Shown one piece after another: positions 13,567 through 64,000 of a stretch of 64,000 nucleotides of DNA. The notes beneath the pieces are model-generated. The model did no database searches, had not been told where the DNA came from, and saw only the letters and a program-made list of their open reading frames with translations. The stretch is from the NCBI GenBank assembly GCA_041917695.1, contig JAYRXE010000037.1:609013-673012 (forward strand). Reading direction: 5' to 3'. How positions within the stretch are numbered: the stretch's first letter is position 1; each line of letters begins with the position of its first letter. Made by a program: the position numbers and the translations under genes. Source of the stretch: Minisyncoccota bacterium (GTDB lineage Bacteria; Patescibacteriota; Minisyncoccia; UBA6257; GWB1-50-10).

Positions 13567-13570
13567 CTTT

Positions 13571-15481: not shown

Positions 15482-15486
15482 TTTTT

Positions 15487-18428: not shown

Positions 18429-18448
18429 GAATAAGCCTTCAGGGCTTT

Positions 18449-24675: not shown

Positions 24676-25382
24676 TAGACTTTGACTGCTTGAGGCTTTC
24701 CAACGAGTACGGACTCCATCCGCACTTCTCCATCCTTCAAGAGAATATAGGAGCATTTATCGTCCACCCAGCACCCGGAGTTCAGATAGGTCGTTTTCCC
24801 CGACTTCATCGTCAGGCAATCGTGGGTGTGTCCGCAGAACACATAGTCCATGCCTTTTCCGGAAGCATATTCAAGGGCTCCCTTCGCCACCCGCTTGGAG
24901 ACCCTAAGCCAGACCTTATACCGCTTTTTGACGAATCCGCTCATGCGCTTCTTTTGACCGTCAAAACGCTGGATGAGCCGATAGGAGCGGTTCAACGTCG
25001 TCGCGAGCGGCTCGCTCTGGATGAGGAATTTATCGTACTGGTGCCCGTGGAGGACGACGCACCGCTTGCCGCTCCACGTGAAGGAAAAGTGGGTATGCGT
25101 CTCAATACCGAGGGATTTGAAGAACTGCTTCGCGAAGAAGTCATGGTTTCCGGCGACCCAGATGACCCGTTTTCCGGAAAGGGCGATTTCCCTGAGTCGT
25201 GTGAGCAGCTGCCAATGGTCGGGGGAAAGAAATCGGAGGTTCGGATTATCGAGAATGTCGCCGTTTAAAATAAGCGTGCCGAAGTCCGTGCGCGCCAAAA
25301 AGGCGGCGAGATCCTTCGCCCGGGCCATTCGCGAGCCCAAATGCAGGTCGGAGACGATAAGAATAGAGGAATCGATGTCCAT
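24675..25382 (-). CDS. Calcineurin-like metallophosphoesterase (LpxH-like family)
   Basis: SDLHLG, GDILD, GNHD and GHTH motifs in the canonical order. Confidence 0.75.
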   Translation of the reverse strand: MDIDSSILIVSDLHLGSRMARAKDLAAFLARTDFGTLILNGDILDNPNLRFLSPDHWQLLTRLREIALSGKRVIWVAGNHDFFAKQFFKSLGIETHTHFSFTWSGKRCVVLHGHQYDKFLIQSEPLATTLNRSYRLIQRFDGQKKRMSGFVKKRYKVWLRVSKRVAKGALEYASGKGMDYVFCGHTHDCLTMKSGKTTYLNSGCWVDDKCSYILLKDGEVRMESVLVGKPQAVKV

Positions 25383-25449
25383 TCAGCGGTTTGAATTTTA
25401 TACCAAATTCAATTTAAATAAAGGGGCATTCCATTTCTCCAAAAAATTA

Positions 25450-48022: not shown

Positions 48023-48882
48023 AAACTTTTATGTATCTCTTTCAGCTCTTTGTTGGTGAGATGCGTATAGATTTGTGTCGTTGAGACATTCGCGTGCCCC
48101 AAGAGCGCCTGCACCGAACGGAGGTCGGCGCCGTTTATTAAAAGGTCGGTTGCAAACGAATGCCGTATTTGGTGCGGATGGACGCGTTTTGCAATGCCCG
48201 CTTTCCGCGCATACCGGTCGACTAACCTCTCCACAGTGCGGGAGGTGATGCGCCCGATGACCTTTCCGGCGCGGGAAAAACTCGCGAAAAGATACTCTTC
48301 GGGATCCGTGCGCTTTTCGAGATAGCGCTTGATCGCCGTCTTCGCTCCGTCGGAAAGGAAGACGATGCGCAATTTGTCGCCCTTTCCGCGAACGGAGAGC
48401 TCTCCGCGGACGAGGTCCATGCGGCGGGGGAGCGCGCACAATTCCGAGACGCGCAAGCCGGTGGAAAAAAGCGTTTCGAGAAGCGCTCGGTCCCGGAGCG
48501 CGGCGATATCGTTTCCTTCGGGCGCCTTGAGGAGCCTTTCCAATTCGGCATACTCAAGCGTTTCGATATCCCGCCGCGCTATTTTCGGGAGCTCAATCAC
48601 GTCCGGAGAGACCGGCGCCCCGCCCCGCTTCGCCAAAAACTTCAGGAAATTCCGTATGGCGATGACGTAATAGCTTTGCGTCGCTTTCTTGAGATTTTTG
48701 CGCGCGAGCGAAGCGCGGAAGGTCCGAATACTTCCCTCTGAGATGTCCGCCGTACTTTTCAGATTCGTCTCGGCGAAAAAAGCGCGCAAATAACGGCTGT
48801 AATTCTCAACTGTTTTCTCCGACCGGTTCTTTTCGATGACCAAATAGTCGAGGTATTCCTGGAGTGCCGTATCTGCCTTCAT
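47998..48882 (-). CDS. xerC: Site-specific tyrosine recombinase, XerC/XerD type
   Basis: N-terminal SAM-like domain (LQEYLDYLVIEKNRSEKTVENY). Catalytic R...K...HxxR...Y (ARGGAP, HQIRHSFAT, LGHANVSTTQIYTHL). 294 aa from the ATG at 48882. The long track ORF is over-extended. It overlaps the PAP2 gene convergently by 25 nt. Confidence 0.85.
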   Translation of the reverse strand: MKADTALQEYLDYLVIEKNRSEKTVENYSRYLRAFFAETNLKSTADISEGSIRTFRASLARKNLKKATQSYYVIAIRNFLKFLAKRGGAPVSPDVIELPKIARRDIETLEYAELERLLKAPEGNDIAALRDRALLETLFSTGLRVSELCALPRRMDLVRGELSVRGKGDKLRIVFLSDGAKTAIKRYLEKRTDPEEYLFASFSRAGKVIGRITSRTVERLVDRYARKAGIAKRVHPHQIRHSFATDLLINGADLRSVQALLGHANVSTTQIYTHLTNKELKEIHKSFHGRRRNR

Positions 48883-48915
48883 TGAGAGTAGTGTACCACG
48901 ATTTCCCTGCCTATT

Positions 48916-48944
48916 TTGACATTTTCCGGGCTTTACGGTAGAAT
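48916..48944 (+). promoter_or_regulatory. Consensus sigma70 promoter of rpsO: -35 TTGACA, 17-nt spacer, -10 TAGAAT; 10 nt before the ATG
   Basis: Exact hexamers and spacing. The predicted transcription start is 3-4 nt from the start codon, so the mRNA is leaderless or near-leaderless. Confidence 0.65.
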
Positions 48945-48954
48945 CCTTCCATCT

Positions 48955-49221
48955 ATGCTTTCTAAGACGAAAAAGACCCGCGTCATCGCGGACTATAAAC
49001 TGCACGAAACGGACACGGGTTCCGCCGAGGTGCAAATCGCGCTTTTGACGCGCCAGATCAAGGAACTCGCCGACCACCTGAAAAAACACCCGAAAGACCA
49101 CCACTCCCGCCGCGGCCTTCTGATGATGGTCGGCAAACGCCGCCGGTTCATGCAGTTTCTCCAGAAAAGCGACGTTAAAAAGTACGAGAAGCTTTCGAAG
49201 AAACTCGCGCTCGACCTCTAA
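48955..49221 (+). CDS. rpsO: 30S ribosomal protein S15
   Basis: MLSKTKKTRVIADYKLHETDTGSAEVQIALLTRQIKELADHLKKHPKDHHSRRGLLMMVGKRRR. Start assigned to the ATG at 48955. The track start is over-extended. Confidence 0.9.
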   Translation: MLSKTKKTRVIADYKLHETDTGSAEVQIALLTRQIKELADHLKKHPKDHHSRRGLLMMVGKRRRFMQFLQKSDVKKYEKLSKKLALDL

Positions 49222-49236
49222 GCTCTTCGTCCGGCC

Positions 49237-49788
49237 ATGCACGCAAACGAACGGGTCGGAATCTTCGTCGATGCCCAGAACATCTACCATTCGGCGAAAA
49301 ATCTCCGCGCCTCGCGGGTAAACTTTTCCGAGCTGAAACGCGCCCTCCTTGCGGGGCGTTCTGCTATACGCGCCTTTTCATACGTGGTGCGGAGCGAAGA
49401 AGAACTCCAGGAAAAAACCGGCGAGGAGTCTTTTTTTGAAGCCCTCAAAAACGCGGGCTTTGAATTAAGGCTGAAAGACATCCAGGTATACCCCGGAGGA
49501 TTTAAGAAAGCCGATTGGGACGTGGGACTCGCCATCGATGCCGTCCGTATCGCCTCCTCGCTGGATACGGTCATTCTCGTAACAGGAGACGGAGACTTCA
49601 TTCCGCTCGTTGAATACCTCAAATGGGGATTGGGAAAGCGGGTGGAAGTTGCGGGATTTTCACGGACGACCTCCGGCAAGCTCCGTGAAGTCGCCGACCA
49701 ATTCACCGAACTCGACAAGCTCCCCAAAATGCTCATCCCCATCAACCAAAAACGGGGGCGGGGACGATTCCCAAAAAAGGCGAAATAA
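49237..49788 (+). CDS. NYN/LabA-like domain protein (predicted PIN-like ribonuclease), inserted between rpsO and pnp
   Basis: GIFVDAQNIY...VILVTGDGDFIPLV pattern of NYN-domain proteins. Confidence 0.6.
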   Translation: MHANERVGIFVDAQNIYHSAKNLRASRVNFSELKRALLAGRSAIRAFSYVVRSEEELQEKTGEESFFEALKNAGFELRLKDIQVYPGGFKKADWDVGLAIDAVRIASSLDTVILVTGDGDFIPLVEYLKWGLGKRVEVAGFSRTTSGKLREVADQFTELDKLPKMLIPINQKRGRGRFPKKAK

Positions 49789-49804: not shown

Positions 49805-51862
49805 ATGGATCTCAATAAAAAAACATACCGAACCGTCCTTCACGGCGAAGACCTCTCGATTGAAGTCTCGGCGCTCGCGGGGCAGGCGAACGCCGCCGTC
49901 TTCGGAAAATGGGGCGGGACCACGGTCCTTGCGACCGCAGTCATGTCGAAGCTCGACAAGGGAGGGGATTTCTTTCCGCTCACCGTCGATTACGAGGAGC
50001 GTTTTTACGCAGCCGGAAAAATTCTCGGCAGCAAGTTCGTGCGCCGGGAAAACCGGCCCACCGACGAAGCGATCCTTTCCGCCCGCCTTATCGATCGGAC
50101 AATCCGCCCGCTCTTTGACCATCGCTTGAGGCGCGAAGTGCAGATCGTCGTCACCGTTCTCACCTACGACGAGCGCCATGATCCCGATGTCATCGGCCTT
50201 ATCGCCGTCTCCACGGCTCTCGGCATCTCCGATATCCCCTGGAACGGTCCCGTCGGCGGGGCGAAATACGCCCAACCGGACGGGGAAAAAGGGAAAGGCT
50301 ATCGCGCTTTCTTTGCGGGACCGAAAGGCCATATCAACATGATCGAGTTTGAAGGCAAGGAAGTTCCAAAGGAAGTTGCCCTGCAGGCTTTTGCGGAAGG
50401 CGAGCGCGACATTGCCGCGCTTGTCGACTTCCAGGAAAAAATAATCGCCGATATCGGCAAACCGAAAGCGGACGTGCATTTGGGAGCTCCCGACGAGGCG
50501 CTTGTCACCAAAGTACGGGAGTTTACCGACGGAAAAATTGAAGAAGCAATCCGCACAAAGACCATCGAACACTTGAAGGAACTGCTTTTCGCGTCGCTTA
50601 CGGCCGACGGAGCGGATGAAGCAACACTTCGCGCCGCCGAACAGATTTTTGAAACCGAATTCGACACCCATGTCCACGTTGATGCCTTGAAGAACAACCG
50701 ACGCCCGGACGGACGCGCCTTTGACGAGATTCGCGACCTCCACGCGGAAATCGCGCCCTTGCCGCTTACCCACGGTTCGGGCCTTTTTATCCGGGGCACG
50801 ACCCAAGTGCTTGCCGTCGCCACGCTCGACTCCCTGAAAGCCGAACAGCTTGTGGAATCGATGGAAGGACTCACCGCGAAACGCTTCATGCTCCATTACA
50901 ACTTCCCCAAATTCGCCACGGGTGAAACCGGCAAAGGCGGCAGGGGGCCCGGCCGGCGGGAAATCGGCCACGGGGCGCTTGCCGCAAAAGCGGTTTCCGC
51001 GATGATACCGCCCAAAGAAGAATTCCCGTATGCAATCCGCATCGTTGCGGAAACGCTTTCTTCAAACGGCTCTTCCTCCCAAGCCTCGACCTGCGCGGCC
51101 TCGCTCGCCCTCATGGATGCGGGAGTTCCCATCAAGCGCCACGTGGCGGGCATCGCCATCGGCCTCATGCTTGAAGAGAACGGGGACGGCTATAAGATTC
51201 TCACCGACATTCAAGGCCCCGAAGACCACTACGGCGACATGGATTTCAAAGTCGCCGGAACCCGCGAAGGACTTACCGCTATCCAGATGGACGTCAAAGT
51301 CCGCGGCATCACGAAAAAGATTTTTGAAGAAGCGCTTGTCGCGGGAGAAAAAGCCCGGATGCAAATCTTGGACGTCATGGAACGCGCTATTCCCGCGCCC
51401 CGTCCGGAAGTTTCCGAATATGCCCCGAAAGTGTCCATCATTCATCTTCCCGAGTACAAGATCGGCGAGGTGATCGGTTCGGGGGGTAAGAACATCCAGG
51501 GACTCATCGCGGCCGTCGGCGGAGAAGTGACCATCGATATCGAAGACGACGGCACGACCTATATCACCGGCGTCAAAAAGGATTTGGTGGAACGAACCAT
51601 CAAGTCCATCGAAGCCATCATCAAGGAATATGAAGTGGGGGAGGTCGTAACGGGTCCCGTCGTGAAAATCCTTGAGTTCGGAGCCATTGTCGACCTGGGG
51701 GGAGGGAATGACGGCATGATCCACGTGTCCGAATTGAAGGAAGGATTCGTGGACCGCGTCGAAGACGTCCTGAAACTCGGCGAAGTGGTCACGGCAAAGG
51801 TGGTGAAAATCGACCGAGAGCGCGGAAAAATAGGCCTTTCGTTGAAGGCTATGAAATCCTAA
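49805..51862 (+). CDS. pnp: Polynucleotide phosphorylase
   Basis: Two RNase-PH domains, a KH domain (GSGGKNIQGLIAAVG) and an S1 domain at the C-terminus. Confidence 0.9.
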   Translation: MDLNKKTYRTVLHGEDLSIEVSALAGQANAAVFGKWGGTTVLATAVMSKLDKGGDFFPLTVDYEERFYAAGKILGSKFVRRENRPTDEAILSARLIDRTIRPLFDHRLRREVQIVVTVLTYDERHDPDVIGLIAVSTALGISDIPWNGPVGGAKYAQPDGEKGKGYRAFFAGPKGHINMIEFEGKEVPKEVALQAFAEGERDIAALVDFQEKIIADIGKPKADVHLGAPDEALVTKVREFTDGKIEEAIRTKTIEHLKELLFASLTADGADEATLRAAEQIFETEFDTHVHVDALKNNRRPDGRAFDEIRDLHAEIAPLPLTHGSGLFIRGTTQVLAVATLDSLKAEQLVESMEGLTAKRFMLHYNFPKFATGETGKGGRGPGRREIGHGALAAKAVSAMIPPKEEFPYAIRIVAETLSSNGSSSQASTCAASLALMDAGVPIKRHVAGIAIGLMLEENGDGYKILTDIQGPEDHYGDMDFKVAGTREGLTAIQMDVKVRGITKKIFEEALVAGEKARMQILDVMERAIPAPRPEVSEYAPKVSIIHLPEYKIGEVIGSGGKNIQGLIAAVGGEVTIDIEDDGTTYITGVKKDLVERTIKSIEAIIKEYEVGEVVTGPVVKILEFGAIVDLGGGNDGMIHVSELKEGFVDRVEDVLKLGEVVTAKVVKIDRERGKIGLSLKAMKS

Positions 51863-51958: not shown

Positions 51959-53020
51959 ATGGAACCCGACCGTCAAAACGGGAAAAAAGAGTCGAAACTC
52001 ATCGGAACCGGTGAAGGGGAGTCGCCCTTGGCCAGCGTTCCGTTCCAAAAAATAGAAATGCGCACCATGCAATCAGATATGTCTTCAATCGCGCAGTCGG
52101 GCGGAGGAAACCCCGCACCGTACTCGCCGGGAGCGACGCCGTCCGCGTCCTCCGCGCCCCAGGGAATTGCGCCGGGGTCGTTCAACGTGGCCGATATGTC
52201 GACGGGAGGAACGCCGCCGACCATTCCGCAAACGCCGACTCCGCCGTCGTATCCTTCTCCTTCAGGAAACGGCAACAAACACCTCTTCATGTGGCTCATG
52301 ATCGGTCTTGCGATTCTCATTATCGCGGCGGCCGCCTATTTCTTCCTCATTCCGTTCCTCCAGAATCCCACCGGCGAATTGCCGGCGGTTACGGAAACGC
52401 AGGAAACCACGGAAGTAACCGAAGAGGAACCGGCGACCACCCAGGAAAATTTGCCGGAAACGCTCGAAATACACGCCTCCTTCTTCAAAACGCCTGCGGA
52501 CCTCACCTCCGAGGTGAAGCCCGAGTCGTTTACCGCAGCCGGCGTCAAGGCGGCGATTCAGCCCGCTTCGACTACCGTCGCGCTCTTCAAAGAGCTCGTG
52601 ATAAAGACCCCGGAGAACAAGCCGGTAACCTTCAGCACCTTCTCCAAGCTCTTCTTCCCGACGTTCTTCACGTCGGACCGGACGTTGAATTTCCAGGACG
52701 ATTTTACCTTTGTTTCTTACACGAACAAATCGGGCACGTGGCTCGGCTTCGTCGCGAAACTTAAGGATTCGAGCGATATGGCTTTCGTGCAAAGCGAAAT
52801 GAACGCATTTCAATCCGAACCCGCCATTAAGGACTTCTACCTTACCGACCCGGGAACCCAGCTTTCCTGGAAGGACGGTAAAATCGGCAGCCGCGCGGCG
52901 TCAGTCCTTGAATTCTCAACTCGGGGACAGGAATTCGCCTACGTGTGGTTTGACCGCTACCTTATCGTGAGCTCAAATCTCGAAGGAGCGGCACAAATCG
53001 CCAAACACCTCGGCTATTAA
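51959..53020 (+). CDS. Hypothetical membrane-anchored protein with a Pro/Thr/Ser-rich N-terminal region and one TM helix
   Basis: Low-complexity N-terminal 100 aa, TM (LFMWLMIGLAILIIAAAAYFFLIPF), C-terminal globular domain. Confidence 0.45.
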   Translation: MEPDRQNGKKESKLIGTGEGESPLASVPFQKIEMRTMQSDMSSIAQSGGGNPAPYSPGATPSASSAPQGIAPGSFNVADMSTGGTPPTIPQTPTPPSYPSPSGNGNKHLFMWLMIGLAILIIAAAAYFFLIPFLQNPTGELPAVTETQETTEVTEEEPATTQENLPETLEIHASFFKTPADLTSEVKPESFTAAGVKAAIQPASTTVALFKELVIKTPENKPVTFSTFSKLFFPTFFTSDRTLNFQDDFTFVSYTNKSGTWLGFVAKLKDSSDMAFVQSEMNAFQSEPAIKDFYLTDPGTQLSWKDGKIGSRAASVLEFSTRGQEFAYVWFDRYLIVSSNLEGAAQIAKHLGY

Positions 53021-53024
53021 GCTC

Positions 53025-53348
53025 ATGAATGAATACCGCGAAAAACTTCTCGCCGAAAAGCAGGAGCTGGAACACCGCATCCACGCGCTTGCCGAACCGG
53101 AGAATTTCGGCGACGACGTAGACGGCTTGGACTCGAAAACCGACGAATCGGAAGAGTTTGCGGCGAATCTCGGCATGCAGACATCTTTCGAAGCGCGCTT
53201 GGAGCGCATCGAGAAAGCCCTGCGCAAGATCGAGCATGGCGAATACGGCATTTGCGAATCGTGCGGGAAGCCTATCGAAAAAGAAGTGCTTGATATCGAT
53301 CCCGAATCGGAATTGTGCCGAACGTGCAAACAAGCGGGTAAGGAATAA
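53025..53348 (+). CDS. DksA/TraR-family C4-type zinc-finger protein
   Basis: Coiled-coil N-terminus and CESCGKPI...CRTC zinc finger. Confidence 0.65.
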   Translation: MNEYREKLLAEKQELEHRIHALAEPENFGDDVDGLDSKTDESEEFAANLGMQTSFEARLERIEKALRKIEHGEYGICESCGKPIEKEVLDIDPESELCRTCKQAGKE

Positions 53349-53354
53349 TAGTCT

Positions 53355-54881
53355 ATGAGTTCCGTCCCTCGCCTTCTATCCGCAGAGCTTGAAGGAATAA
53401 CGGGGGAACCGGTATATGTGGAGGCCGACGTGAACGTCGGCCTCCATTCTTTTACCATTGTCGGCTTGGCGGACAAGGCTGTTTCCGAAGCGAAGGAACG
53501 GGTGAATTCAGCCCTGAAAAATGCGGGCGTGAAACCGCCGACTAAGGAAAATCGGCGCATCACCATCAACCTCGCCCCCGCAGACCTCAAAAAAGCCGGT
53601 TCGCGGTTTGATCTTCCGATTGCGCTCGCGTATCTGATGGCGACCGGACAGATGAAGCCTTTCCCAGCCGCGGACAAGCTTTTCGTCGGCGAATTGTCGC
53701 TCGACGGGACGCTTCGTCCCGTCACGGGCGTCATTAACATTGCCCGCCTTGCGAAACGTCTCCGTGTCGCCGAGCTTTTCGTGCCGCGCGAAAACGCGGA
53801 CGAAGCCGCGCTTATGGCAGGCGTGAAGATTATCCCCGTCGGGCACATCCGCGATGCGATACATCATCTTGAGGGGATCGCCCCCATCCGGCCGGCGGCG
53901 GCCGGCGTACTTGCGGGCGTTCATGCGCATTCAAAAACTTCGATAGACGACGTGCGTGGCCAGGAAAATGCCAAACGCGCGCTTCTCATCGCTGCGGCGG
54001 GCGGGCACAATATCCTTTTTTCGGGACCGCCGGGGGCGGGGAAAACCATGCTCGCCGAAGCATTCGCATCGCTTCTGCCTCCGCCTTCGGAAAACGAGAT
54101 TCTCGAAATCATGGAAGTGTGGAGCGCCGCCGGAGAAAAATTTGAACGGTACGCGCGTCCGTTCCGCTCACCTCATCACACCGCAAGTCCCAGCGCCATT
54201 CTCGGAGGCGGAACAAATCCGCGCCCCGGAGAAATCAGTCTCGCGCACCGCGGCGTCCTCTTTCTCGACGAACTGCCGGAATTCAGGCGGGACGTCCTCG
54301 AAGGACTCCGGCAACCGCTTGAAAACGGCACGGTCTGCGTCGCTCGTTCGAAAAAAAGCCTTGAATTTCCGGCTCGATTCATTTTCGTCGCCGCGATGAA
54401 CCCATGCCCCTGCGGATTTTTCGGCGATAAGGAGAAAGAATGCCGTTGCACCGCCTATGAGGTCTTAAAATACCAAAAACGCGTTTCAGGCCCACTCCTC
54501 GACCGCATTGATCTTCAGCTTTTCGTTCCGCGCGTACCGTATGAAGCGCTTGCCGAGAGACGGGAAAATCGGGAGATGAAACTGCGCGACCAGATTTTCC
54601 GCGCGCGCGAATTCCAGCAGACACGGCTCCGTTCGCTCGGGATTTCCGGCGAATCAAACGCAGAAATCGGCGCAAAGGATATCGAAGCAATCGCGGAACT
54701 TGAACCGGCGGGCGAAGCTTTTCTCAAGTCAGCCATGGAGAAGTCTTTTGTTTCCCCCCGAAGCTACCACAAGATACTTAAAGTAGCCCGAACTATCGCC
54801 GACCTCGACGGTGCGGAAACAATCGGAACGCCTCATCTTGCGGAAGCCTTCCATTACCGCCTTCGGGCGGGAGAGGTATAA
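53355..54881 (+). CDS. comM: YifB/ComM-family Mg-chelatase-like AAA+ ATPase
   Basis: Lon-like N-terminal domain, Walker A (GPPGAGKT), C4 motif (CPCGFFGDKEKECRC), C-terminal helical domain. An AAGGAA ribosome-binding site is upstream. Confidence 0.85.
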   Translation: MSSVPRLLSAELEGITGEPVYVEADVNVGLHSFTIVGLADKAVSEAKERVNSALKNAGVKPPTKENRRITINLAPADLKKAGSRFDLPIALAYLMATGQMKPFPAADKLFVGELSLDGTLRPVTGVINIARLAKRLRVAELFVPRENADEAALMAGVKIIPVGHIRDAIHHLEGIAPIRPAAAGVLAGVHAHSKTSIDDVRGQENAKRALLIAAAGGHNILFSGPPGAGKTMLAEAFASLLPPPSENEILEIMEVWSAAGEKFERYARPFRSPHHTASPSAILGGGTNPRPGEISLAHRGVLFLDELPEFRRDVLEGLRQPLENGTVCVARSKKSLEFPARFIFVAAMNPCPCGFFGDKEKECRCTAYEVLKYQKRVSGPLLDRIDLQLFVPRVPYEALAERRENREMKLRDQIFRAREFQQTRLRSLGISGESNAEIGAKDIEAIAELEPAGEAFLKSAMEKSFVSPRSYHKILKVARTIADLDGAETIGTPHLAEAFHYRLRAGEV

Positions 54882-54911
54882 ATAAAAAAGCGCTTCCGCG
54901 CCAATCATTCC

Positions 54912-55241
54912 TTACTCTTCGGTGGTCGTACTGTAATCAGGGGGAAAGAGCGCCGGTTTCAGGACTCCCATGTCGGATTCGAACCCTGAAAAGGCTTTTT
55001 CTATCGTCCGCGATGCGCCCAAAAACTCGACGCCGTTCGAAAAAGCGGAGGCGGTGAAATTCTTACCCGCGAATACCCCCTGCCGGGCGCGGAGCGGGCT
55101 CTCAGGAAGCCGGTACGCGGAAAAATCGAGGAATCCGAGGGCGATGGCAACGACCCCCAACGAAGCCACGAAAAGAAGCCGGTCGAAACCTTCCCGCTTT
55201 GCCAATTCCTTAAGCGTTTTCCTCATGGATGCTAGAATCAA
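54912..55241 (-). CDS. Small hypothetical membrane protein (low confidence)
   Basis: Occupies a 364-nt gap between comM and rsmA on the opposite strand. One TM helix. No motif support. Confidence 0.25.
   Translation of the reverse strand: MILASMRKTLKELAKREGFDRLLFVASLGVVAIALGFLDFSAYRLPESPLRARQGVFAGKNFTASAFSNGVEFLGASRTIEKAFSGFESDMGVLKPALFPPDYSTTTEE
55230..55238 (+). promoter_or_regulatory. Extended -10 element TGcTAGAAT, 7 nt upstream of the rsmA start codon
   Basis: Same TGnTAGAAT pattern as at 51944-51952. The -35 is weak. Confidence 0.45.
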
Positions 55242-55245
55242 TCAG

Positions 55246-56136
55246 ATGGTAATGAGTATAGCACAAGAAGGCGGGGGAGACCAGCTTTTTAAGGGTGTTC
55301 GCCCCAAGAAGTCCCTGGGCCAGCACTTCCTAAAGGATAAGAAGGTTATACGTGATATTTTAGCCCTCCTGGAGCCTGAAAAGGGCTGTATTTATGCGGA
55401 AATTGGCCCCGGGAAGGGACAGCTTACCTTTCCTTTTTTGGAACGGGAAAGGGAAAGGGGGAGCCATAATCGGTACTTTGCCCTTGAAAAAGATGATTTC
55501 CTGGCTGAAAACCTCAAAAAAGCCCTTAAAACCTATGATTTTAGCGCATTTGCAGAAGTCATCCACGGGGATGCAATCGACGAAATCCCCAGGTTAACCA
55601 CAAGGGCCTCTACGGAAGACCTAGTGGTGTTCGGTAATATCCCGTACTACCTCACCGGAAAACTCATGCGGACCCTGTGGGGCCTCCCCAAACCCCCGAA
55701 AAAGGCGGTTTTCATGGTCCAATGGGAGGTTGCAGAGCGTATCGGGGAAGAAAAAGGCCCCATGTCGAAGCTTCGCGCGGCGGTTGAGTTTTGGGGGAAG
55801 CCTTCCATAGCCTTTAAGGTCCCGAAAAACCGTTTCTCGCCGCCCCCCAAAGTTGATTCGGGAGTCGTTGTGATAACCGGAAAGGAGGGGAGCGAGAAAT
55901 GGCCCGACCGCCTGAAGGGAACTTACGAGGAAATCTTCGGCGCCCTTTTCTCCCAGCCGCGGAAGACTGCTCTCAACAATCTTTCCGCGATTTTTGGCGA
56001 TAAGAAGACCACCGAAGAATTCATCCGCTCCCTGAAACTCGAACCCGCGCAAAGACCGCACGAAATCTCATCAAAAAGCATTCTCGCGATGGCGGAAGTG
56101 TTGTATAATGAGCGCAATGGAGCGCAGAAAAAATAA
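55246..56136 (+). CDS. rsmA: 16S rRNA (adenine1518/1519-N6)-dimethyltransferase
   Basis: LGQHFL and EIGPGKGQLT SAM-binding motifs. Start candidates at 55225, 55246 and 55252. 55246 is chosen because of the -10 element at 55233-55238. Confidence 0.8.
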   Translation: MVMSIAQEGGGDQLFKGVRPKKSLGQHFLKDKKVIRDILALLEPEKGCIYAEIGPGKGQLTFPFLERERERGSHNRYFALEKDDFLAENLKKALKTYDFSAFAEVIHGDAIDEIPRLTTRASTEDLVVFGNIPYYLTGKLMRTLWGLPKPPKKAVFMVQWEVAERIGEEKGPMSKLRAAVEFWGKPSIAFKVPKNRFSPPPKVDSGVVVITGKEGSEKWPDRLKGTYEEIFGALFSQPRKTALNNLSAIFGDKKTTEEFIRSLKLEPAQRPHEISSKSILAMAEVLYNERNGAQKK

Positions 56137-56518
56137 GCTTGGTCTGCCTTTATTTTGCATTTTCGTATTTTTCGCAGTCGCGAGCTTTTTTACGGCGCCG
56201 CGCGCGTCGGCAATCGATATTTTTCGTCCTTATGGAGGCCGTGTAATTCCGCGCATCGGGACAATTTGCACCGGAGGGGAGCCGGCATTCGACGTCAAAA
56301 CGACGTACGGCACCGTGGAAGGCCCTTTTGCCACCACGCCGCTCACGCGCCGGTACCAATACTTCAGTATTTGGGGTTCGCCGCTTAGAAACATCCTTCT
56401 TCTTGCCTTTCCCTACCAAGCGCCCACCTGTGTAAAACCCTGCGACGAAGATCCCACGACGCCATGCCCCTTTACGGCATATTCGGTTTATTCGTTCGGC
56501 ATTTCACTCATTCCCTAA
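56117..56518 (+). CDS. Small secreted Cys-rich protein, hypothetical
   Basis: Signal peptide (LGLPLFCIFVFFAVASFFTAPRASA). About 9 Cys. It overlaps the rsmA end. Confidence 0.4.
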   Translation: MERRKNKLGLPLFCIFVFFAVASFFTAPRASAIDIFRPYGGRVIPRIGTICTGGEPAFDVKTTYGTVEGPFATTPLTRRYQYFSIWGSPLRNILLLAFPYQAPTCVKPCDEDPTTPCPFTAYSVYSFGISLIP

Positions 56519-56522
56519 CGCT

Positions 56523-57290
56523 ATGAAATCGCGCATGAACCCGAAAAGGAAATTTTATACCGCGCTCTGGATACTTGGCGGCGCGCTTTTCGTCTCAACG
56601 TGGATCATACTCGGCACCACCCACCCGGCAATCGATCCCATTTCGATGTTGCGCGGAGAAAAAACTTCGGACAACCGCTTCCTTTTCGGCGGGGAGAATG
56701 GAAGCGACCCACTGAACACTTCGGACTTCACCTCGAACGTCATCGAAAAATACGGTTTCCATATCGCCATCCAAAATCCGGACGGGCCGGTCGATAAATA
56801 CCTCGCCCTCCCTTCGGCGGAGAAACTTGAACTCGCGCTTCAGGAAGAACTCAAAAAAAGCATCCCGTACGACGCGGCGTCGGAAAGTGATTTGCGCGTG
56901 ACGAACGATACGTCGGACGCCACCGTGCGGCGATATCTGGAGAATTTGAAAAACACCGCCGCAAAACAGCGCATTGATTTCAATACGGATCTCGGCGTCG
57001 CCTTGAACGACCTCACTTCAAAAAACGATTCGGGAAAGCTCGAGAAGCTCGCAACGAAGTTTGATTCGCTTGCCGGGGATCTGCTTTCCGTCACCGTTCC
57101 CGGCTCCTGGAAAGTCTTCCATCTCGAACTCGTGAATATCCACCGCCATAAAGCGGCGGCACTCCATGCGCTTGCCGACATAGATAACGATCCGGTGAAA
57201 GCTGCCGTGGCCGCCGCGGAACTTCGGAGCATCGGAGCGGCAGAGCTGTCGCTTTCCGCTATCCTCTCGGAAAAAAGCAAAGACCTGTAA
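56523..57290 (+). CDS. Membrane-anchored extracytoplasmic protein, hypothetical
   Basis: N-terminal TM anchor (FYTALWILGGALFVSTWIIL), then a 220-aa soluble domain. Confidence 0.45.
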   Translation: MKSRMNPKRKFYTALWILGGALFVSTWIILGTTHPAIDPISMLRGEKTSDNRFLFGGENGSDPLNTSDFTSNVIEKYGFHIAIQNPDGPVDKYLALPSAEKLELALQEELKKSIPYDAASESDLRVTNDTSDATVRRYLENLKNTAAKQRIDFNTDLGVALNDLTSKNDSGKLEKLATKFDSLAGDLLSVTVPGSWKVFHLELVNIHRHKAAALHALADIDNDPVKAAVAAAELRSIGAAELSLSAILSEKSKDL

Positions 57291-57292
57291 GC

Positions 57293-59011
57293 ATGCACCG
57301 TTCAATGTATTCAAAAATCATCACCGCGGCACTTATTCCCGTACTCATCACCGGCGGCTTTTTCTTCCCGCACAAAGCGCGAGCGCAATCGGTGGATAAA
57401 TGCCTTTCAGGAGCCCTTTCCGGCATCATGGGTGATATTTTGGGCGGGTTTCTCCCGTCGATTCCTGGCCTGGATCAGAAGGTCCCCACGTCCGACCAAG
57501 GCGCCCAAAAAGGAACGCGCGCGTTTCAGTTCGACGAATGCATCAAAAGCATCACTGATGCCGCGCTCAAGGTTGCGCTCCAGAACCTGAAGAAAAAACT
57601 TCTCGACAACATGGTTGACGATACCATTGCCTGGATTCGCGACGACCGCGAGCCGAAATACATAACGAACTTCAAAGACTTCACGGAAAGCGCCGTCGAG
57701 GAAGCGGCGAATAACACCCTCCGCGAAATCGACCTCGCGAACCTCTATCCGGACCCTGCGCTTCAGGAAGGCATCAAAGCGGCGATCATGGAACGCGTCC
57801 GCTCGGTCAGATTTTCCGACACCATTGCGTGCACCCTTACCGATGAAGTGAATGTCGATGAATTCAAAGGTGATTTTAGAAAAGGCGGCTTTGCCGGACT
57901 CCAAGTCGCTTCCATGCCGAATAATAACCCCGAAGACGTTGCAATGATGGCGCGTCTTTTCGCCCAGGCGAATGAAGAACAGCAACTTGCTGCAAAGAAC
58001 GCTCTTTCCTCGGGCCTCACACAATCCGATGTTGATTGCACCCAATGGGTGCTCGCGAAATCGAGCGGCGGCATCGGCGGAGCGGCGGGCGCATATTACA
58101 AAGACGCCAACGGTAACATGAAGATTGAAATCACGGAACCTCAACAGGAAGCGCCCGTTTCGAATATTCCCAACACGAAATACATTTGCCAGGATGACGC
58201 GACCGGAAGCGGCCAATATGTATCCACTCCGCCTACCGTTGTTGACGCTATCGCCGCCAAAGTGGCGACGCAGGATATTGATTACGTATTAGGCATGGAT
58301 GATATCCAGGGCTATATTTCCGGAATCGCCGACGCGGTCTTCAATCGAATTCTTAAGGGCGGATTCAATCTCTTTGAACGGGGAGGGGACCCAAGCTCAT
58401 ATCTTGAAGGCCTCGAGGGGGATATTGAAAACTATCAAAGCATCGAAACGGGAGAGAAGCTTCAAGGCCAGGCGAATGAACAGGTAAAACGCGCGCTTAT
58501 CTCCAAGACCAATCTTCTCATCGATACGGCTTCAACAAGCCTTTCGGCAACGAATGCGGCGCTTACGAAAGCAACTGCGCTCTTACCAATGATGAATGCG
58601 ACCTCAAGCCCCGAGGGGCTTGCCGTGTGCATGGATTACCATCCCGCCTTCTTCCCGGCATTTATAAATCCCGACCCGACTCCTTCGTGGTGGCCCACGG
58701 GAAACCGGACCGTCATCATGCAAAAACTCCGCGCCGTTTCGGGAACTCTCACGGGCCTCACTAATCCTTTCAAGACGTTTTGGGAGAATGGGAAAACAAG
58801 CGCCGCTGATTACCAGACCCAAGCCCAGGCGATCACCGGTTCGACTCCGCCGAATGTGATTTCGACGCTCCAGGCGAATGTGAACGCATTGGAAGCCTCG
58901 CTGAACGCAAAAACAGGGGAATCGAGCGCCCATAATTCCCTCGTGAACGATTTCTATGCGCAGGGAGCGCGGGAGCGCAACCGGTGCGTCGGTCCGGCAA
59001 ATTCGAGCTAA
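57293..59011 (+). CDS. Large secreted protein, hypothetical
   Basis: Signal peptide (...HKARA|QSV). 572 aa, no recognised motifs. Its stop overlaps the next start (TAATG). Confidence 0.45.
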   Translation: MHRSMYSKIITAALIPVLITGGFFFPHKARAQSVDKCLSGALSGIMGDILGGFLPSIPGLDQKVPTSDQGAQKGTRAFQFDECIKSITDAALKVALQNLKKKLLDNMVDDTIAWIRDDREPKYITNFKDFTESAVEEAANNTLREIDLANLYPDPALQEGIKAAIMERVRSVRFSDTIACTLTDEVNVDEFKGDFRKGGFAGLQVASMPNNNPEDVAMMARLFAQANEEQQLAAKNALSSGLTQSDVDCTQWVLAKSSGGIGGAAGAYYKDANGNMKIEITEPQQEAPVSNIPNTKYICQDDATGSGQYVSTPPTVVDAIAAKVATQDIDYVLGMDDIQGYISGIADAVFNRILKGGFNLFERGGDPSSYLEGLEGDIENYQSIETGEKLQGQANEQVKRALISKTNLLIDTASTSLSATNAALTKATALLPMMNATSSPEGLAVCMDYHPAFFPAFINPDPTPSWWPTGNRTVIMQKLRAVSGTLTGLTNPFKTFWENGKTSAADYQTQAQAITGSTPPNVISTLQANVNALEASLNAKTGESSAHNSLVNDFYAQGARERNRCVGPANSS

Positions 59012-61572
59012 TGTTCTCAAAAATCTTCACCCAAGGAACCAGGAAAACCGCCCGCATCGTCGCGGGTATTTCCCTTTTCTTTGCGCTCGCGATAAGTGCC
59101 ACCCCCGCCGTCGCCCACGCACAGGCGCTGAAATCGATTGTGAGCGCGGTCGGAGGACCCGTGGTAAGCGGGGTTCTTAACGCACCCGAAATCGTGAAGA
59201 CCGCGACGAGCAAGGTGACTGAAGCCACGCTTGAAGCAACCTTCGCGCCGGTCACCCTTCTCACGGGCCTGGTGCGCATCATGGGTGGTTTCGTGCTCGC
59301 GCTCGTTTCCTACATTCTCGGTTTCATCATCGACCTCAATTTCAACATCCTGAATCCCGACCTCGCAACGTATAAATTCATCGCGACGGGATGGAGCATC
59401 ACCCGCGACATCGCGAATCTCGGGTTTGTGCTTTTCATCATCCTTATCGCCCTCGCGACCATCGTCCGTTTCCAGGATTACGAAGCAAAACGGCTCTTGC
59501 CGAAACTCATCGCCGCGGCCATTCTCGTGAACTTCAGCCTCGCCATCCCGACGGTGCTCTTGAATTTTACGAACGTCATGACGAACTACTTCCTCGACCG
59601 CATCGGCGATCCCTCCGCTCAAGGACTTGAAGGGGTAAGCGGAAGCGTGCGTTTCGCGGTGGAACTCGCCACGCTTTTCAAGCCCCAAAGCTTCATCCTG
59701 ACCGATCCTTCCGCCCAGGACATCTCGTATCTCGCGGGAGGCCCCATCACCGGCGGCGCCGCAGAAGGCTATTTGAACTTCTCGTCTTCGATGACGGCGC
59801 GTCTCGTGAACATGATATTCCTGGCCATCTGCATATTCGTCATCGGCACCCTGGCTATCCTTTTCGTCATACGATTCGTATGGCTCAGCTTCCTTCTCGC
59901 CATCGCACCTATCACCTGGCTCACCTGGGTGATTCCCGGCCTCGAAGGCAATTTCAGCAGTTGGTGGAAGAAATTCATGCAACACGCGTTCTTCATGCCC
60001 CTTTCCATCTTCTGCATCTACCTCGTGATTCTCACGGGAGACGGATTCTACGCCATCGCGCAAAACCGGGATACCTCGCTCTTCAGCGCTTCCGGCGTCT
60101 CCGACCTCTTCAAACAGACGATGATGTACGGTTCCGTGCAAATACTCTTGGCGGCGTTCATGATCGGTTCGCTTATCGTGGGTCAAAAACTCTCCATCGA
60201 AGGCGCGGGGAAATCGCTTTCCATCGGCAAATCGTGGGCGAACGCGACGCGCGGATGGGCGAAGAAACGGACCCTCGAAGGCGGAAAACGCGCAGCTTCC
60301 TCCAGCATGGGTCGGGGTCTCGCCCAAAGGATGGCCCTTTCAAACAACGCCGTAATAAGCTCTCTCGGCAAACGCCTTCACGGAACAACGCTCGGGTGGG
60401 CTGCCGAACGCGAAAAACAAGCCGACAAGAATGTTCAAAAATACACCGGCGGGGATTTGGAGCTTGCGGCGGCATTCCATAAAAACGCGCTTTTCGCCGA
60501 AGAAAAGGCAGGATATGAACGGATGGTCAGCAAGGCCGGCGGGGATGTAAATAAAGACGTAAAAGACAAGGAAGAAAAGCTAGAAACCGCTGAGGAAAAG
60601 GAATTGCAGGAAGCGGCCCGCTCGCTTAAAGCGCAAAAATATGCATCGGAAATTGCGAACAAGATTCATGTTCTTGAAAATGATTTAACTAATAAGCCGG
60701 CTGAAATCACCGCAAACAACGCGGAAATCCAGCGTCTTGAGAATGAAATCCAAACCCTCGAATCAAAAATCAGATTTGAAACCGATCCCGCAAAGAAAAG
60801 CGCGCTCGAACGGCAAAAGACCGGTTTGGAAGGGCAGAAGTCAGCCTTACAAACAAAGGATGCTTCGCTCAACAAAGAGCTTAAGGAGCTGGGTGACAAA
60901 CTTGATGGCGCGCGGAAAGAATATGTCCGCGCAAACGCCCAGTTTGAAAAGGCGCTTGATTCGGCTGAAGACGCCGCTGAAAAGAAGGGTGACGCCGCGA
61001 AGAATCTTGCAAAAGCGCAAACTACGCAGGACGATTTCAACCTGCGCGTCATGCAGCGCCTTGATGCTAACACCCGCAACCAGCTGAAATCCTCGAATTT
61101 CGATCTCTCAAAGACAAATCTTGCCGGCTCCCGAAAAGCGAAAGACAAACAGATTCCCGAACTCCAAATGGACAAGCTCCAAAAGGAGATGAAGCGTCTC
61201 GCGGACGAAGTTAAGAAAGCTGATGATGCTTACACCAACGCCTCAAAACCGGGTTCCTTCGCAAAACCGGAAGAGATAGCGGCGGCGCTTGAATGGAAGA
61301 ATAAGAAGTCGGAAGAACATACCCAGCTTCAAATGCAGGTAACGAGATTCAAGACTGCGCAGACCGAACTTGAAAATTCCCGGCGCGACCTCTCAACCTT
61401 CACTACGAGGGGAGGGAGTAGGACGGACCCCCGGTACGCCGCACTTCTTGAGAAAATGGAAAAAGCCGAAAAGAATTACTGGCGCGTAGCGAAATTCAAC
61501 CCCTCCCGTCCCGCAGGATTCAACCAGAAGGGAAAGGGCGGGAAGAAAGAAGATAAAGACGACGACGAATAA
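59011..61572 (+). CDS. VirB6/TrbL-like polytopic membrane protein with a roughly 400-aa C-terminal coiled-coil extension (putative type IV secretion inner-membrane component)
   Basis: Signal peptide, then about 6 TM helices, then a very long heptad-rich charged tail (KELQEAARSLKAQKYASEIANKIHVLENDLTNK...). Translationally coupled to the upstream gene. Confidence 0.45.
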   Translation: MFSKIFTQGTRKTARIVAGISLFFALAISATPAVAHAQALKSIVSAVGGPVVSGVLNAPEIVKTATSKVTEATLEATFAPVTLLTGLVRIMGGFVLALVSYILGFIIDLNFNILNPDLATYKFIATGWSITRDIANLGFVLFIILIALATIVRFQDYEAKRLLPKLIAAAILVNFSLAIPTVLLNFTNVMTNYFLDRIGDPSAQGLEGVSGSVRFAVELATLFKPQSFILTDPSAQDISYLAGGPITGGAAEGYLNFSSSMTARLVNMIFLAICIFVIGTLAILFVIRFVWLSFLLAIAPITWLTWVIPGLEGNFSSWWKKFMQHAFFMPLSIFCIYLVILTGDGFYAIAQNRDTSLFSASGVSDLFKQTMMYGSVQILLAAFMIGSLIVGQKLSIEGAGKSLSIGKSWANATRGWAKKRTLEGGKRAASSSMGRGLAQRMALSNNAVISSLGKRLHGTTLGWAAEREKQADKNVQKYTGGDLELAAAFHKNALFAEEKAGYERMVSKAGGDVNKDVKDKEEKLETAEEKELQEAARSLKAQKYASEIANKIHVLENDLTNKPAEITANNAEIQRLENEIQTLESKIRFETDPAKKSALERQKTGLEGQKSALQTKDASLNKELKELGDKLDGARKEYVRANAQFEKALDSAEDAAEKKGDAAKNLAKAQTTQDDFNLRVMQRLDANTRNQLKSSNFDLSKTNLAGSRKAKDKQIPELQMDKLQKEMKRLADEVKKADDAYTNASKPGSFAKPEEIAAALEWKNKKSEEHTQLQMQVTRFKTAQTELENSRRDLSTFTTRGGSRTDPRYAALLEKMEKAEKNYWRVAKFNPSRPAGFNQKGKGGKKEDKDDDE

Positions 61573-61577
61573 CCACC

Positions 61578-62921
61578 ATGCCCGTTTCTCAAAAAAACCA
61601 AGCACCCCTCGCAGAAGAGTATCAGGAAATCCTGGTTCGGCTTCCGATATGGGATGACGGCGTGTGGGAGCCTCTGCAAAAGAAGGATTTTAAGGCCGCC
61701 ATGGACCGCTTCTTCACGCTGATGGGGTATTACACGCGAAAGACCGTCCAGGATATTTATTGGAAAAATATCATCCAGGGCGATGAAGCGGTGCGGGGCA
61801 GCGTCACTTCCGACGAATGGCGGATGCAAATCGTCCCGCGATTGGCGCAGATATTCCTTGAAATAGGGGAGGAGACGCTTTTTGAAAAAATCTATTCATC
61901 TCTTGATTGGGAATGGCTCGCGGCGTTTCATTTTTCGGTCGTCGGCGAGATTCCCGGAATCAGCGTTGATGAGAAGGCCTCGTATTTAACCAAGGAAAAG
62001 CCGTGGCTTCTCGATTTTTTCATTGGAAGCCCTATGAATGCGCTTGCAGAAGGTCTTTTGTTCGATGTCTCGGAAGGCTTGCCTCGTCCCACCCAATCGC
62101 TTGCTTCCTACCCCGCAGAACTTTCACCGGCGCTCAAAAAAGCCTTCTTCTCCGTGCCTTCCGCAAAAAAAATAACCACTCTTTCTTCAGAATTGAAGTG
62201 GGAGCGCCAACAAACGGTTGATTTTTCATACGTCGTAGGGCTCTTCCTTTTAGGCGTCGAGGAAAAAGAGCGCTGGGAAGAATTATTTGAAAAAATCTTC
62301 TCCGGTTATTCCCCCGAACAAAAAGAAAACGTTTCAAAGCTTGCCTACCGCTTGCTGGTAAAGCCGCTTGAGGGCGATACGCGCGACCTCAGAAAAGGGA
62401 CCGAATCAGTCATCCAGGAAAAGGAAGTCTCCGTTCCGGTCGCGGTCGTCGAGGAAAAATCCGAGAAGGCGGTCAAGATAAACAAGGTTGAATTCCCGAA
62501 GGCGGCGGAAAACCAGGCGGTGGATCCCAGCGCGCCTTTCATGCTCCGCACCGAAGAGGACAGCGCCCTGAAAAAGACTCCGGCAGGAAACCCGGAAAAA
62601 GGCTTTTCTTTCCCGTTCGGATTCTTCAAGCGGAGCGCTCAACCCACACAGGCCCCCCGCGTTTCGGTAAAAATCGAATCCGCCGCGGAGCCTGCGGGAC
62701 CGACGGGTACGCCCAAAGTGCAAAAACCGGCGCAGAGTGTTTTCGAAACCGTCCAAAAAGACATCGCCCCCGCTCCGGCCGAAGGAGATTCCGTTTTCGG
62801 GTCTCTCGGAAAGGACTTGAAGGAGGCGGGAGCAAAGAAAACCGTCCATTACAGCCAATTCCACACCCCCTTGCCGGAGCCGGCTCCGCATATAGAGGGA
62901 AACACGGTATCCTTCAAATAA
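61578..62921 (+). CDS. Hypothetical soluble protein with an acidic/Pro-rich C-terminal half
   Basis: 447 aa, no TM helices, no motifs recognised. It sits between the VirB6-like and VirB3-like genes. Confidence 0.4.
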   Translation: MPVSQKNQAPLAEEYQEILVRLPIWDDGVWEPLQKKDFKAAMDRFFTLMGYYTRKTVQDIYWKNIIQGDEAVRGSVTSDEWRMQIVPRLAQIFLEIGEETLFEKIYSSLDWEWLAAFHFSVVGEIPGISVDEKASYLTKEKPWLLDFFIGSPMNALAEGLLFDVSEGLPRPTQSLASYPAELSPALKKAFFSVPSAKKITTLSSELKWERQQTVDFSYVVGLFLLGVEEKERWEELFEKIFSGYSPEQKENVSKLAYRLLVKPLEGDTRDLRKGTESVIQEKEVSVPVAVVEEKSEKAVKINKVEFPKAAENQAVDPSAPFMLRTEEDSALKKTPAGNPEKGFSFPFGFFKRSAQPTQAPRVSVKIESAAEPAGPTGTPKVQKPAQSVFETVQKDIAPAPAEGDSVFGSLGKDLKEAGAKKTVHYSQFHTPLPEPAPHIEGNTVSFK

Positions 62922-62922
62922 C

Positions 62923-63432
62923 ATGTCCACGTTCCAGGTTCCCCAGTTCGTTGACCAAAAGCCGAAGATTATCGGCTCTTTGAATATGGTGCAGTTCGGT
63001 TATATCGCAGTGGCCGGACTCATCATTTTCGGGCTCTACTACGTATTCAATCTTTTCGTGTGGATAATCGTCGCCCTTCCCATTGCCGGCGTCGCCGGCT
63101 TTCTCGCCTTCGCAAAGATCAACGGCCAGGAATCGCATAAAATCCTCGGTTCGATGCTGAGCTTCGTCGGGGGCTCAAAGACCTACGTGTGGCAGCGGCC
63201 GTCGCCGAAGGTCGTCGACCCCGTCGCCCAAACGTCCATTGAGAAAGCGCGGCATTCGATGAGCATCCAGGAAAAGATAAAATCCATCGCCCTCCACGTG
63301 ACAACCGGCAACGCCTTTGCAAAAGGCAAGGCGGCCCCGGAAGAACCGGGTATCGTGCGCGAAAAACCGGGATTCGAAGTTGCTACCTTTGAAACCGGCG
63401 AGGAAAAACTGGTAAAGCGCGTGGATTACTAG
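62923..63432 (+). CDS. PrgI/VirB3-like small membrane protein (two adjacent TM helices)
   Basis: QFVDQKPKIIG followed by two TM helices (YIAVAGLIIFGLYYVF, VWIIVALPIAGVAGFLAFA), as in PrgI-family proteins that precede VirB4 genes. Confidence 0.4.
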   Translation: MSTFQVPQFVDQKPKIIGSLNMVQFGYIAVAGLIIFGLYYVFNLFVWIIVALPIAGVAGFLAFAKINGQESHKILGSMLSFVGGSKTYVWQRPSPKVVDPVAQTSIEKARHSMSIQEKIKSIALHVTTGNAFAKGKAAPEEPGIVREKPGFEVATFETGEEKLVKRVDY

Positions 63433-63477
63433 ACTCCGATTGGTAAAGAAAGGGCCAGTCGGCTAAAATAGGGGAGT

Positions 63478-64000
63478 ATGGCAGAGGTGCAGAAAGCATC
63501 CCAGGACTTCGTTCAAATCGATAAGATAGATCGCGGAGTCGCGTATCTGAAAAAAGGCGGGCTTTTCCGCATTGTTATGGTTTCCGGCATCAATTTCGAT
63601 TTGAAATCGGAGGATGAACAAAATCTCATCCTTGATTCCTTCCAAAATTTTATCAATACCCTTGATTTCAGCGTCCAATTTTTCATCCACTCGCGGAAAG
63701 TGAATGTGGCCCGCTACTTGGACCAGATGAAAGCGCGGCAGGAAGAAGAGACCAACCAGCTTTTAAAGATTCAAATTGAGGAATATATCGCATTCATCCG
63801 GCAATTTGTCGAGGAAAATCAAATCATTGCGAAGACCTTCTTCGTGGTCGTTCCCCATCACAAGCTCGTCAAGCTTCCGACGGCCACCGGCCTTTTGGGA
63901 GGCATATTCGGAAAACCCCAGACGCCTGCGGAACCGCAGATGAGCGACGAAGAAACGCTCCAACAGCTTTCCCAGCGCGTGGAACAAGTAATCGGCGGAC
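63478..64000 (+). CDS. VirB4/TraE/PrgJ-like type IV secretion ATPase, N-terminal part (continues beyond the window end)
   Basis: N-terminal motif IDKIDRGVAYLKKGGLFRIVMVSGINFDLKSEDEQNLIL is characteristic of VirB4-family N-termini in Gram-positive-type systems. The Walker A would lie beyond the window. Confidence 0.5.
   Translation, partial: MAEVQKASQDFVQIDKIDRGVAYLKKGGLFRIVMVSGINFDLKSEDEQNLILDSFQNFINTLDFSVQFFIHSRKVNVARYLDQMKARQEEETNQLLKIQIEEYIAFIRQFVEENQIIAKTFFVVVPHHKLVKLPTATGLLGGIFGKPQTPAEPQMSDEETLQQLSQRVEQVIGG

Follow-up and report, generated by a model that had tools for sequence, protein, structure and literature searches.

We analysed a 64,000-nucleotide stretch of chromosome (hereafter the window; positions 609,013 to 673,012 of contig JAYRXE010000037.1, assembly GCA_041917695.1) from a Paceibacteria (Parcubacteria, candidate phyla radiation (CPR)) bacterium. 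A gene cluster at its end very probably represents the 5' half of a chromosomal type IV secretion system (T4SS) of the Patescibacteria clade, derived from systems of the mating-pair-formation class FATA (MPF-FATA) and deprived of their DNA-processing parts. The system has already been described in the literature, and the locus is ordinary for its group: nearly all ultra-small Patescibacteria carry it. A previous reading made from the letters of this DNA (the sequence-only reading) had proposed a chromosomal, Gram-positive-type T4SS core in which a VirB6-like gene is followed by a PrgI/VirB3 gene directly before VirB4. This proposal was borne out by matches to the Pfam family PF12666 and to the CD1110 family of VirB4 ATPases.

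The window ends inside the cluster. A metagenome contig of the Joint Genome Institute (JGI), L001, is 99.6% identical to window positions 52923-64000 and extends 8 kb past the window end. For orthologue comparison we used a related species, L089. All comparative counts refer to the 80 best loci kept from a search of GTDB genomes with the C-terminal part of VirB4; in many of these loci, the upstream flank is too short to show the first genes of the cluster.

Organization and conservation of the gene cluster

The seven co-directional open reading frames (ORFs) of the sequence-only reading are all present on the + strand, with intergenic distances from -29 to +45 nt. They encode a small secreted Cys-containing protein (56117-56518, 133-136 amino acids (aa); the frame is open from 56108, so that 56108-56518 gives 136 aa), an anchored or secreted extracytoplasmic protein of 255 aa (p255, 56523-57290), a secreted protein of 572 aa with conserved Cys (p572, 57293-59011), an extended VirB6-like polytopic membrane protein of 853 aa (59011-61572), a soluble protein of 447 aa (p447, 61578-62921), a PrgI/VirB3-like protein of 169 aa (62923-63432) and a TrsD-like protein, which corresponds to the N-terminal domain of VirB4 as an ORF of its own (63478-64000, cut by the window end at codon 174 of 215). 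The TAATG stop/start overlap noticed earlier between the 572-aa and 853-aa genes is real (59009-59013). A hydropathy scan agreed with the topology described in that reading, and it gave a single N-terminal hydrophobic segment in each of the 136-, 255- and 572-aa proteins. The cluster is tightly packed and co-directional and reads as an operon; a promoter/terminator scan across it turned up no internal signal that stood convincingly above chance.

L089 has orthologues of all six complete genes, in unchanged order. For five of them, members of the same family occupy the corresponding place in 40 to 74 of the 80 related genomes; the exception is the 136-aa protein, with homologues confined to a close clade. 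Together, the orthologues and the positional families indicate that the genes are real rather than chance ORFs. The upstream border is the gene of the rRNA adenine dimethyltransferase KsgA/RsmA (55225-56136, + strand, start as called by JGI in L001; Pfam RrnaAD E 5e-36), which precedes the module in 40 of the 80 loci. KsgA is a conserved housekeeping gene and not a component of the T4SS. Using tblastn and iterated profile searches, we found a fixed order in the 80 loci: KsgA, p255, p572, the VirB6-like protein, a protein of about 300 aa, PrgI, the TrsD-like protein, VirB4, a small membrane protein, p231, one or more pilins and p393. A few kb further downstream, related genomes encode DnaA and DnaN, as seen in L009.

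In the underlying search, the C-terminal part of VirB4 matched more than 597 GTDB species genomes at 55-79% identity. The named genomes were Patescibacteria, mostly Paceibacteria (Paceibacter, Jorgensenbacteria, Harrisonbacteria, Kaiserbacteria and Nomurabacteria), and the 80 best loci were all titled as Patescibacteria/CPR lineages or unclassified metagenome-assembled genomes (MAGs).

The cluster could also be the remnant of a decayed or cryptic Gram-positive-type integrative and conjugative element (ICE) that has lost its relaxase. The order VirB6-PrgI-VirB4 and the CD1110-type VirB4 are as in Firmicutes elements such as pCF10. Moreover, the statement of the sequence-only reading that no integrase is visible overlooked a gene with Phage_int_SAM_1 and Phage_integrase domains 7 kb upstream (47998-49290, - strand). 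However, this tyrosine recombinase is of the Xer type, its position beside PAP2 is kept in L089, and housekeeping genes lie between it and the cluster; its likely role is that of chromosome dimer resolvase rather than mobile-element integrase. In dozens of species with the above VirB4 identities, the cluster likewise sits between ksgA and dnaA/dnaN, and the G+C content of the region is not deviant. No relaxase or type IV coupling protein (T4CP) was found in the window, L001 or L089 by tblastn with the pCF10 and R388 proteins (72 kb covered, at BLAST-level sensitivity), in agreement with the earlier statement that a relaxase is missing; the sole T4CP-like match was FtsK. We consider a decayed ICE very improbable. 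The order recurring in dozens of species and the lack of detectable relaxase and T4CP argue for vertical inheritance and against a mobile element. The cluster, placed between ksgA and (in related genomes) dnaA-dnaN, is thus inherited vertically across the class.

PrgI and an apparently split VirB4

PrgI was identified by PF12666 with 33.5 bits (gathering cut-off 27), which is the outcome that the sequence-only reading had anticipated for 62923-63432. The protein has two transmembrane (TM) segments, and its gene lies 45 nt upstream of the VirB4 genes. This arrangement, with PrgI directly 5' of the VirB4 genes, was found in 74 of the 80 loci.

The last ORF of the window had been read as the N-terminus of VirB4. 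It does match the N-terminal part of the VirB4 model, but it does not open a single long VirB4 gene: L001 shows a stop after 215 aa and, one base on, the beginning of an ATPase ORF of 581 aa. Within the window itself, the TrsD-like N-domain is all that is visible of VirB4, with matches below the cut-offs to the NCBIfam models VirB4_plasma (E 3e-10) and TrsD (E 3e-9 to 4e-10; cut-off 200 bits). With the contig extended, the ATPase could be assigned to the VirB4 family as expected. The 581-aa ORF reached 384.7 bits against NCBIfam conju_CD1110 (cut-off 325 bits, E 8.8e-115), matched the Pfam families P-loop_TraG (E 1.7e-29) and AAA_10 above threshold, and aligned with PrgJ of pCF10, itself annotated as CD1110, at 28% identity over 558 aa (E 5e-47); TrwK of R388 was matched at E 0.002. 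The best VirB4 models were CD1110 (Firmicutes) and the VirB4 of the Mycoplasma ICE. The match to the CD1110 family rules out the candidates FtsK and ABC transporter for this ATPase.

Positions 2-115 of the CD1110 model are covered by the TrsD-like ORF and positions 186-733 by the 581-aa ORF. Among the 67 assessable species, 62 have two separate ORFs and 5 a single fused one. Because they tile one VirB4 model and are fused in a few species, the 215-aa and 581-aa ORFs together look like a split VirB4 of the CD1110 family, rather than a VirB4 with an extra paralogue beside it.

We also observed that PADLOC and NCBIfam models for the methylation-associated defence system (MADS) share domains with L001 10556-12950: PADLOC mad8 matched the C-terminal part of VirB4 (E 8.5e-22), and the TrsD-like N-terminal part matched a segment of the MAD2/MTase_II models (E about 1e-5). 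Annotation pipelines could therefore mislabel such T4SS genes as defence genes. Taken at face value, the two matches would make the cluster a MADS-like anti-phage defence locus with a VirB4/HerA-type ATPase. Nevertheless, their scores are far under that of CD1110, and the cluster has no methyltransferase, no other MADS gene and no further PADLOC match. Nor does MADS have a role for PrgI, the VirB6 fold or the VirB2-like pilins, and a defence locus is in our estimation extremely unlikely.

The VirB6-like protein

The hydropathy scan of the 853-aa protein gave an N-terminal signal-like segment and about six TM segments (TM domain, residues 1 to about 400), followed by a coiled-coil-like tail of about 460 aa. 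The tail is rich in K, E and A and had weak SMC/JetC coiled-coil matches only. A basic juxtamembrane segment suggests that the tail may be cytoplasmic.

We collected 127 homologues of this protein. All those with a named source came from Patescibacteria or unclassified MAGs, save one partial 'Chloroflexi' protein. Family members range from 581 to 1560 aa, and the length of the tail varies widely. The commonest Pfam match in the family was TrbL, which was found in 6 of 36 members with a best E of 2e-4, below threshold. A PDB sequence search with the full-length family profile returned coiled-coil noise only, and tblastn of the TM domain against plasmids gave just E 0.3-0.9. It is the predicted fold, and not the sequence, that displays the polytopic channel of the VirB6 type. 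About 60% of the homologues bear the label PF19590.5, presumably a TrbL-like family; the label was found neither in the scanned Pfam copy nor in a literature search, and we did not use it as evidence.

Accessory proteins within the window

The 136-aa protein has a signal-like N-terminus and five Cys. A 53%-identical orthologue occupies the same position in L089, and weak positional homologues were found only in L009 and L013 (E about 5e-4). Searches of Pfam, NCBIfam and PADLOC gave no match. Based on the L089 orthologue and the JGI gene call, its start is likely at 56117 (MERRKNK...). The protein is, by all appearances, a lineage-restricted first gene of the cluster.

The next two proteins are more widely distributed. 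p255 is mostly helical, and its family was found at the same position in 40 of the 80 loci after profile iteration. Its relatives carry the extracellular bacterial TSP3 repeat, and p255 matched none of the sequences in the PDB. A VirB8-like identity of p255 was considered and is unsupported, as the protein appears helical and lacks a PDB match. p572 has a signal-like N-terminus and seven Cys. Its family is present in 42 of the 80 loci and comprises 1,535 representative clusters at E<=1e-3, or 595 at E<=1e-10; a word-based homologue search returned just 9-10 relatives. p572 matched nothing in Pfam, NCBIfam or the PDB, and its AlphaFold model, built from 8 sequences, was too poor for use (predicted local distance difference test 49.6). 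In five species (L016, L018, L020, L026 and L027), the families of p255 and p572 are fused in single ORFs of 711-872 aa, which argues for a joint function.

p447, whose gene lies between those of VirB6 and PrgI, has no TM segment. A conserved helical domain follows the lineage-specific N-terminal 178 aa, and the protein ends in a Pro-rich tail. Among the genes at the equivalent position in the related loci, 42 of 43 form one family of about 300 aa, and p447 matched the profile of this positional family with E 5e-13 over residues 179-437. A 42%-identical full-length orthologue exists in L089, and Pfam gave no match.

The profiles of p255, p572, the p447 family and three proteins encoded downstream of the window (the 307-aa membrane protein, p231 and p393, described below) found nothing among the T4SS proteins of pCF10 and R388. 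We regard p255, p572 and p447 as conserved accessory components of the Paceibacteria T4SS, apparently without counterpart in classical T4SSs.

Genes downstream of the window in L001

Directly after VirB4, L001 encodes a Gly-rich membrane protein of 307 aa (12958-13881, + strand), which recurs in 52 loci; its + strand orthologue in L089 is 34% identical. At this place the JGI caller had put a 247-aa gene on the minus strand (13012-13755); the conserved gene is the 307-aa one on the + strand. It is followed by p231, a secreted protein of 231 aa with its family in 66 of the 80 loci. Relatives of p231 carry a cadherin-like beta-sandwich, and this sandwich fits, together with the TSP3 repeat in the relatives of p255, an extracellular location.

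The pilin genes follow. PF18895 (T4SS_pilin) was above its gathering cut-off of 26.6 bits in two L001 genes, with 31.2 and 35.1 bits, and a third VirB2-like pilin paralogue starts at the contig end. The first gene (14573-16060, 495 aa) fuses a T4SS_pilin N-terminus to a C-terminal domain of 370 aa with 19 Cys, and the sole match of this domain was a faint one to SLT_3 (lysozyme-like, E 0.049). Downstream of it are the genes of a 179-aa anchored protein and of p393, a membrane-anchored TolB-like beta-propeller (16636-17817; profile against PDB TolB, E 6e-8); the p393 family lies downstream of the pilin genes in 55 of the 80 loci. The second pilin fusion (17753-18877, about 7 kb past the window end) also ends in a Cys-rich domain. 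By eye, its motifs 'SNHGAGCALD' (SxHxxGxAxD) and 'EPWHY' (WH) resemble those of LAS/M15 (VanY-like) peptidases, and its product is a candidate VirB1-type wall hydrolase. PDB and Pfam sequence searches with the C-terminal domains of both pilin fusions gave no significant match.

Comparison with described systems

The Patescibacteria VirB4 proteins form a monophyletic clade nested in MPF-FATA, found in 2,407 of 3,035 genomes (Quinonero-Coronel et al. 2025, PMC12102498). According to the same study, TrsD is the most abundant associated component of this T4SS, and PrgI/VirB3, VirB6 and arrays of PF18895 pilins are parts of it. Relaxases are nearly absent, T4CPs seldom lie near virB4, and VirB8 is rarely found; in Paceibacteria, KsgA, DnaA and DnaN neighbour virB4. 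For Saccharibacteria, transposon sequencing (Tn-seq) showed the T4SS to be essential for epibiotic growth; pilins were noted, and neither a relaxase nor a coupling protein could be recognised (Wang et al. 2023, PMC10633639). The present locus resembles the systems of these two papers (PMC12102498; Ca. Southlakia epibionticum SEML1_0006-0019, PMC10633639) in its chromosomal location, the missing relaxase, the MPF-FATA-type VirB4, the separate TrsD-like gene by virB4, PrgI/VirB3, VirB6, the PF18895 pilin arrays and the KsgA/DnaA/DnaN surroundings. Nothing essential is different. What the locus adds are accessory genes left unannotated in those papers, namely those of p255, p572, the p447 family, the Gly-rich membrane protein, p231 and the TolB-like propeller.

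With the Prg/Pcf system of pCF10 from Enterococcus faecalis, the prototype of MPF-FATA, the locus shares the order PrgH (VirB6-like)-PrgI-PrgJ (VirB4) and the CD1110 ATPase at the 28% identity given above. pCF10 has PcfC (T4CP), PcfG (relaxase), the hydrolase PrgK, the VirB8-like PrgL and adhesins, and no pilin. By contrast, counterparts of PcfC, PcfG, PrgK, PrgL and the adhesins were not detected here by sequence, whereas a split VirB4, an extra gene between VirB6 and PrgI, the 460-aa tail of VirB6 and VirB2-like pilins are present. The Trs system of pGO1 likewise has a small separate protein homologous to the N-terminus of VirB4 (TrsD), though the score of the present ORF is below the 200-bit cut-off. 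A 2025 FEMS review that treats the Patescibacteria T4SS uses the term 'extended VirB6' for proteins with large hydrophilic C-terminal domains (PMC12857230). The VirB6-like protein has no significant sequence similarity to these, to TrwI of R388 or to VirB6 of A. tumefaciens. It differs from the extended VirB6 proteins in its long coiled-coil-like tail, and the system is a monoderm one without VirB7, VirB9 and VirB10.

Several points weigh against a Patescibacteria-clade T4SS at this locus. The TrbL/VirB6 model search that the sequence-only reading had suggested for 59011-61572 failed, with no Pfam TrbL match at E<=10, and hhalign of the VirB6 family profile against the single sequences of TrwI and PrgH was not significant. 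The VirB6 identity accordingly derives from the predicted fold, the sub-threshold matches in relatives and the gene position, without a significant sequence match. A VirB8/PrgL-like protein was not found when the profiles of p255, p231 and p393 were compared with PrgL, TrwG and the VirB8 structures of the PDB, and no clear VirB1-like component was identified in the cluster. Furthermore, the ATPase, the pilins and everything beyond codon 174 of the TrsD-like gene come from L001. The function, finally, would be extrapolated to Paceibacteria from the Tn-seq of Saccharibacteria and the microscopy of a preprint. Even with these points taken into account, we hold the Patescibacteria-clade T4SS to be very probable.

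Proposed function and the question of DNA uptake

From the known architecture of T4SSs, VirB6, PrgI, TrsD and VirB4 would form the membrane translocon and power the assembly of a VirB2-type pilus. The part that spans the cell wall or contacts the host may consist of the secreted and anchored accessory proteins. The machine would then serve an epibiotic or parasitic interaction with a host, in which protein or another macromolecule is exchanged, rather than conjugation. A role in host interaction instead of conjugation, which the sequence-only reading had raised, is also the published view (PMC10633639, PMC12102498). A 2026 preprint reported acquisition of host RNA as well as tubular structures that may be T4SS pili where parasite and host meet, and PNPase and VirB4 have been tied to feeding on host RNA in Patescibacteria in a 2026 preprint; RNA uptake has been proposed (bioRxiv 10.64898/2026.06.21.733656). 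Rather speculatively, p255, p572, the p447 family, the VirB6 tail, the Gly-rich membrane protein, p231 and the propeller might be new structural subunits that replace the functions of VirB8, VirB5 and VirB1 and build a pilus-bearing, wall-spanning apparatus, possibly an importer of host macromolecules such as RNA. We regard this proposal as tentative and rather less than even in its chances.

Import of a different kind would be expected if the cluster encoded a DNA-uptake machine like ComB of H. pylori or the archaeal Ced system, taking in DNA together with ComM and other competence genes. The genes of ComM and of a DksA/TraR zinc-finger protein lie just upstream, no relaxase or T4CP was found, the C-terminal part of VirB4 had weak matches to CedB (E 9e-10) and CedD, and competence genes occur near the T4SS in the class ABY1 (PMC12102498). 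The sequence-only reading had pointed out ComM and DksA/TraR as neighbours and had named DNA uptake as one possible role. However, L089 has no ComM gene between those of DksA and KsgA, ComM was present in only 7 of the 80 loci, and the adjacency is therefore incidental. The scores of CedB and CedD are far under that of the conjugation-type VirB4 CD1110. In Saccharibacteria, deletion of comEC abolishes competence and leaves the cells viable (PMC12857230, citing Wang 2023), whereas the T4SS is essential, which speaks against DNA uptake being what makes it so. A DNA-uptake machine thus seems improbable to us, and the preferred reading remains a Patescibacteria T4SS engaged in host interaction.

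No T4SS other than that of the Patescibacteria is known to be essential for the growth of its bearer. The present locus is not a new kind of system but a clean Paceibacteria example of it. What is still of interest in it are the accessory families that are conserved yet unannotated, and it lists such partners: the p572 family (about 1,500 clusters), p255, the p447 family and the TolB-like propeller. Structural and genetic work on cultivated Patescibacteria should take in these partners.

Other genes in the window

The context of the cluster within the window is one of housekeeping genes: FtsK, GyrA, a solute-binding protein, PAP2, the Xer-type recombinase, polynucleotide phosphorylase (PNPase), the DksA/TraR zinc-finger protein, ComM and KsgA. 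The 848-aa FtsK (25021-27567), which comprises 4TM, alpha, motor and gamma domains, is no coupling protein. PNPase is encoded at 49805-51862, 4 kb upstream of the cluster, and likewise in L089; its proximity to the T4SS may be coincidental. Next to it, at 51959-53020, lies the gene of a 353-aa Pro-rich membrane protein without a Pfam match, and in L089 a gene for a 348-aa protein takes this place, with PNPase on one side and the DksA/TraR-like gene on the other.

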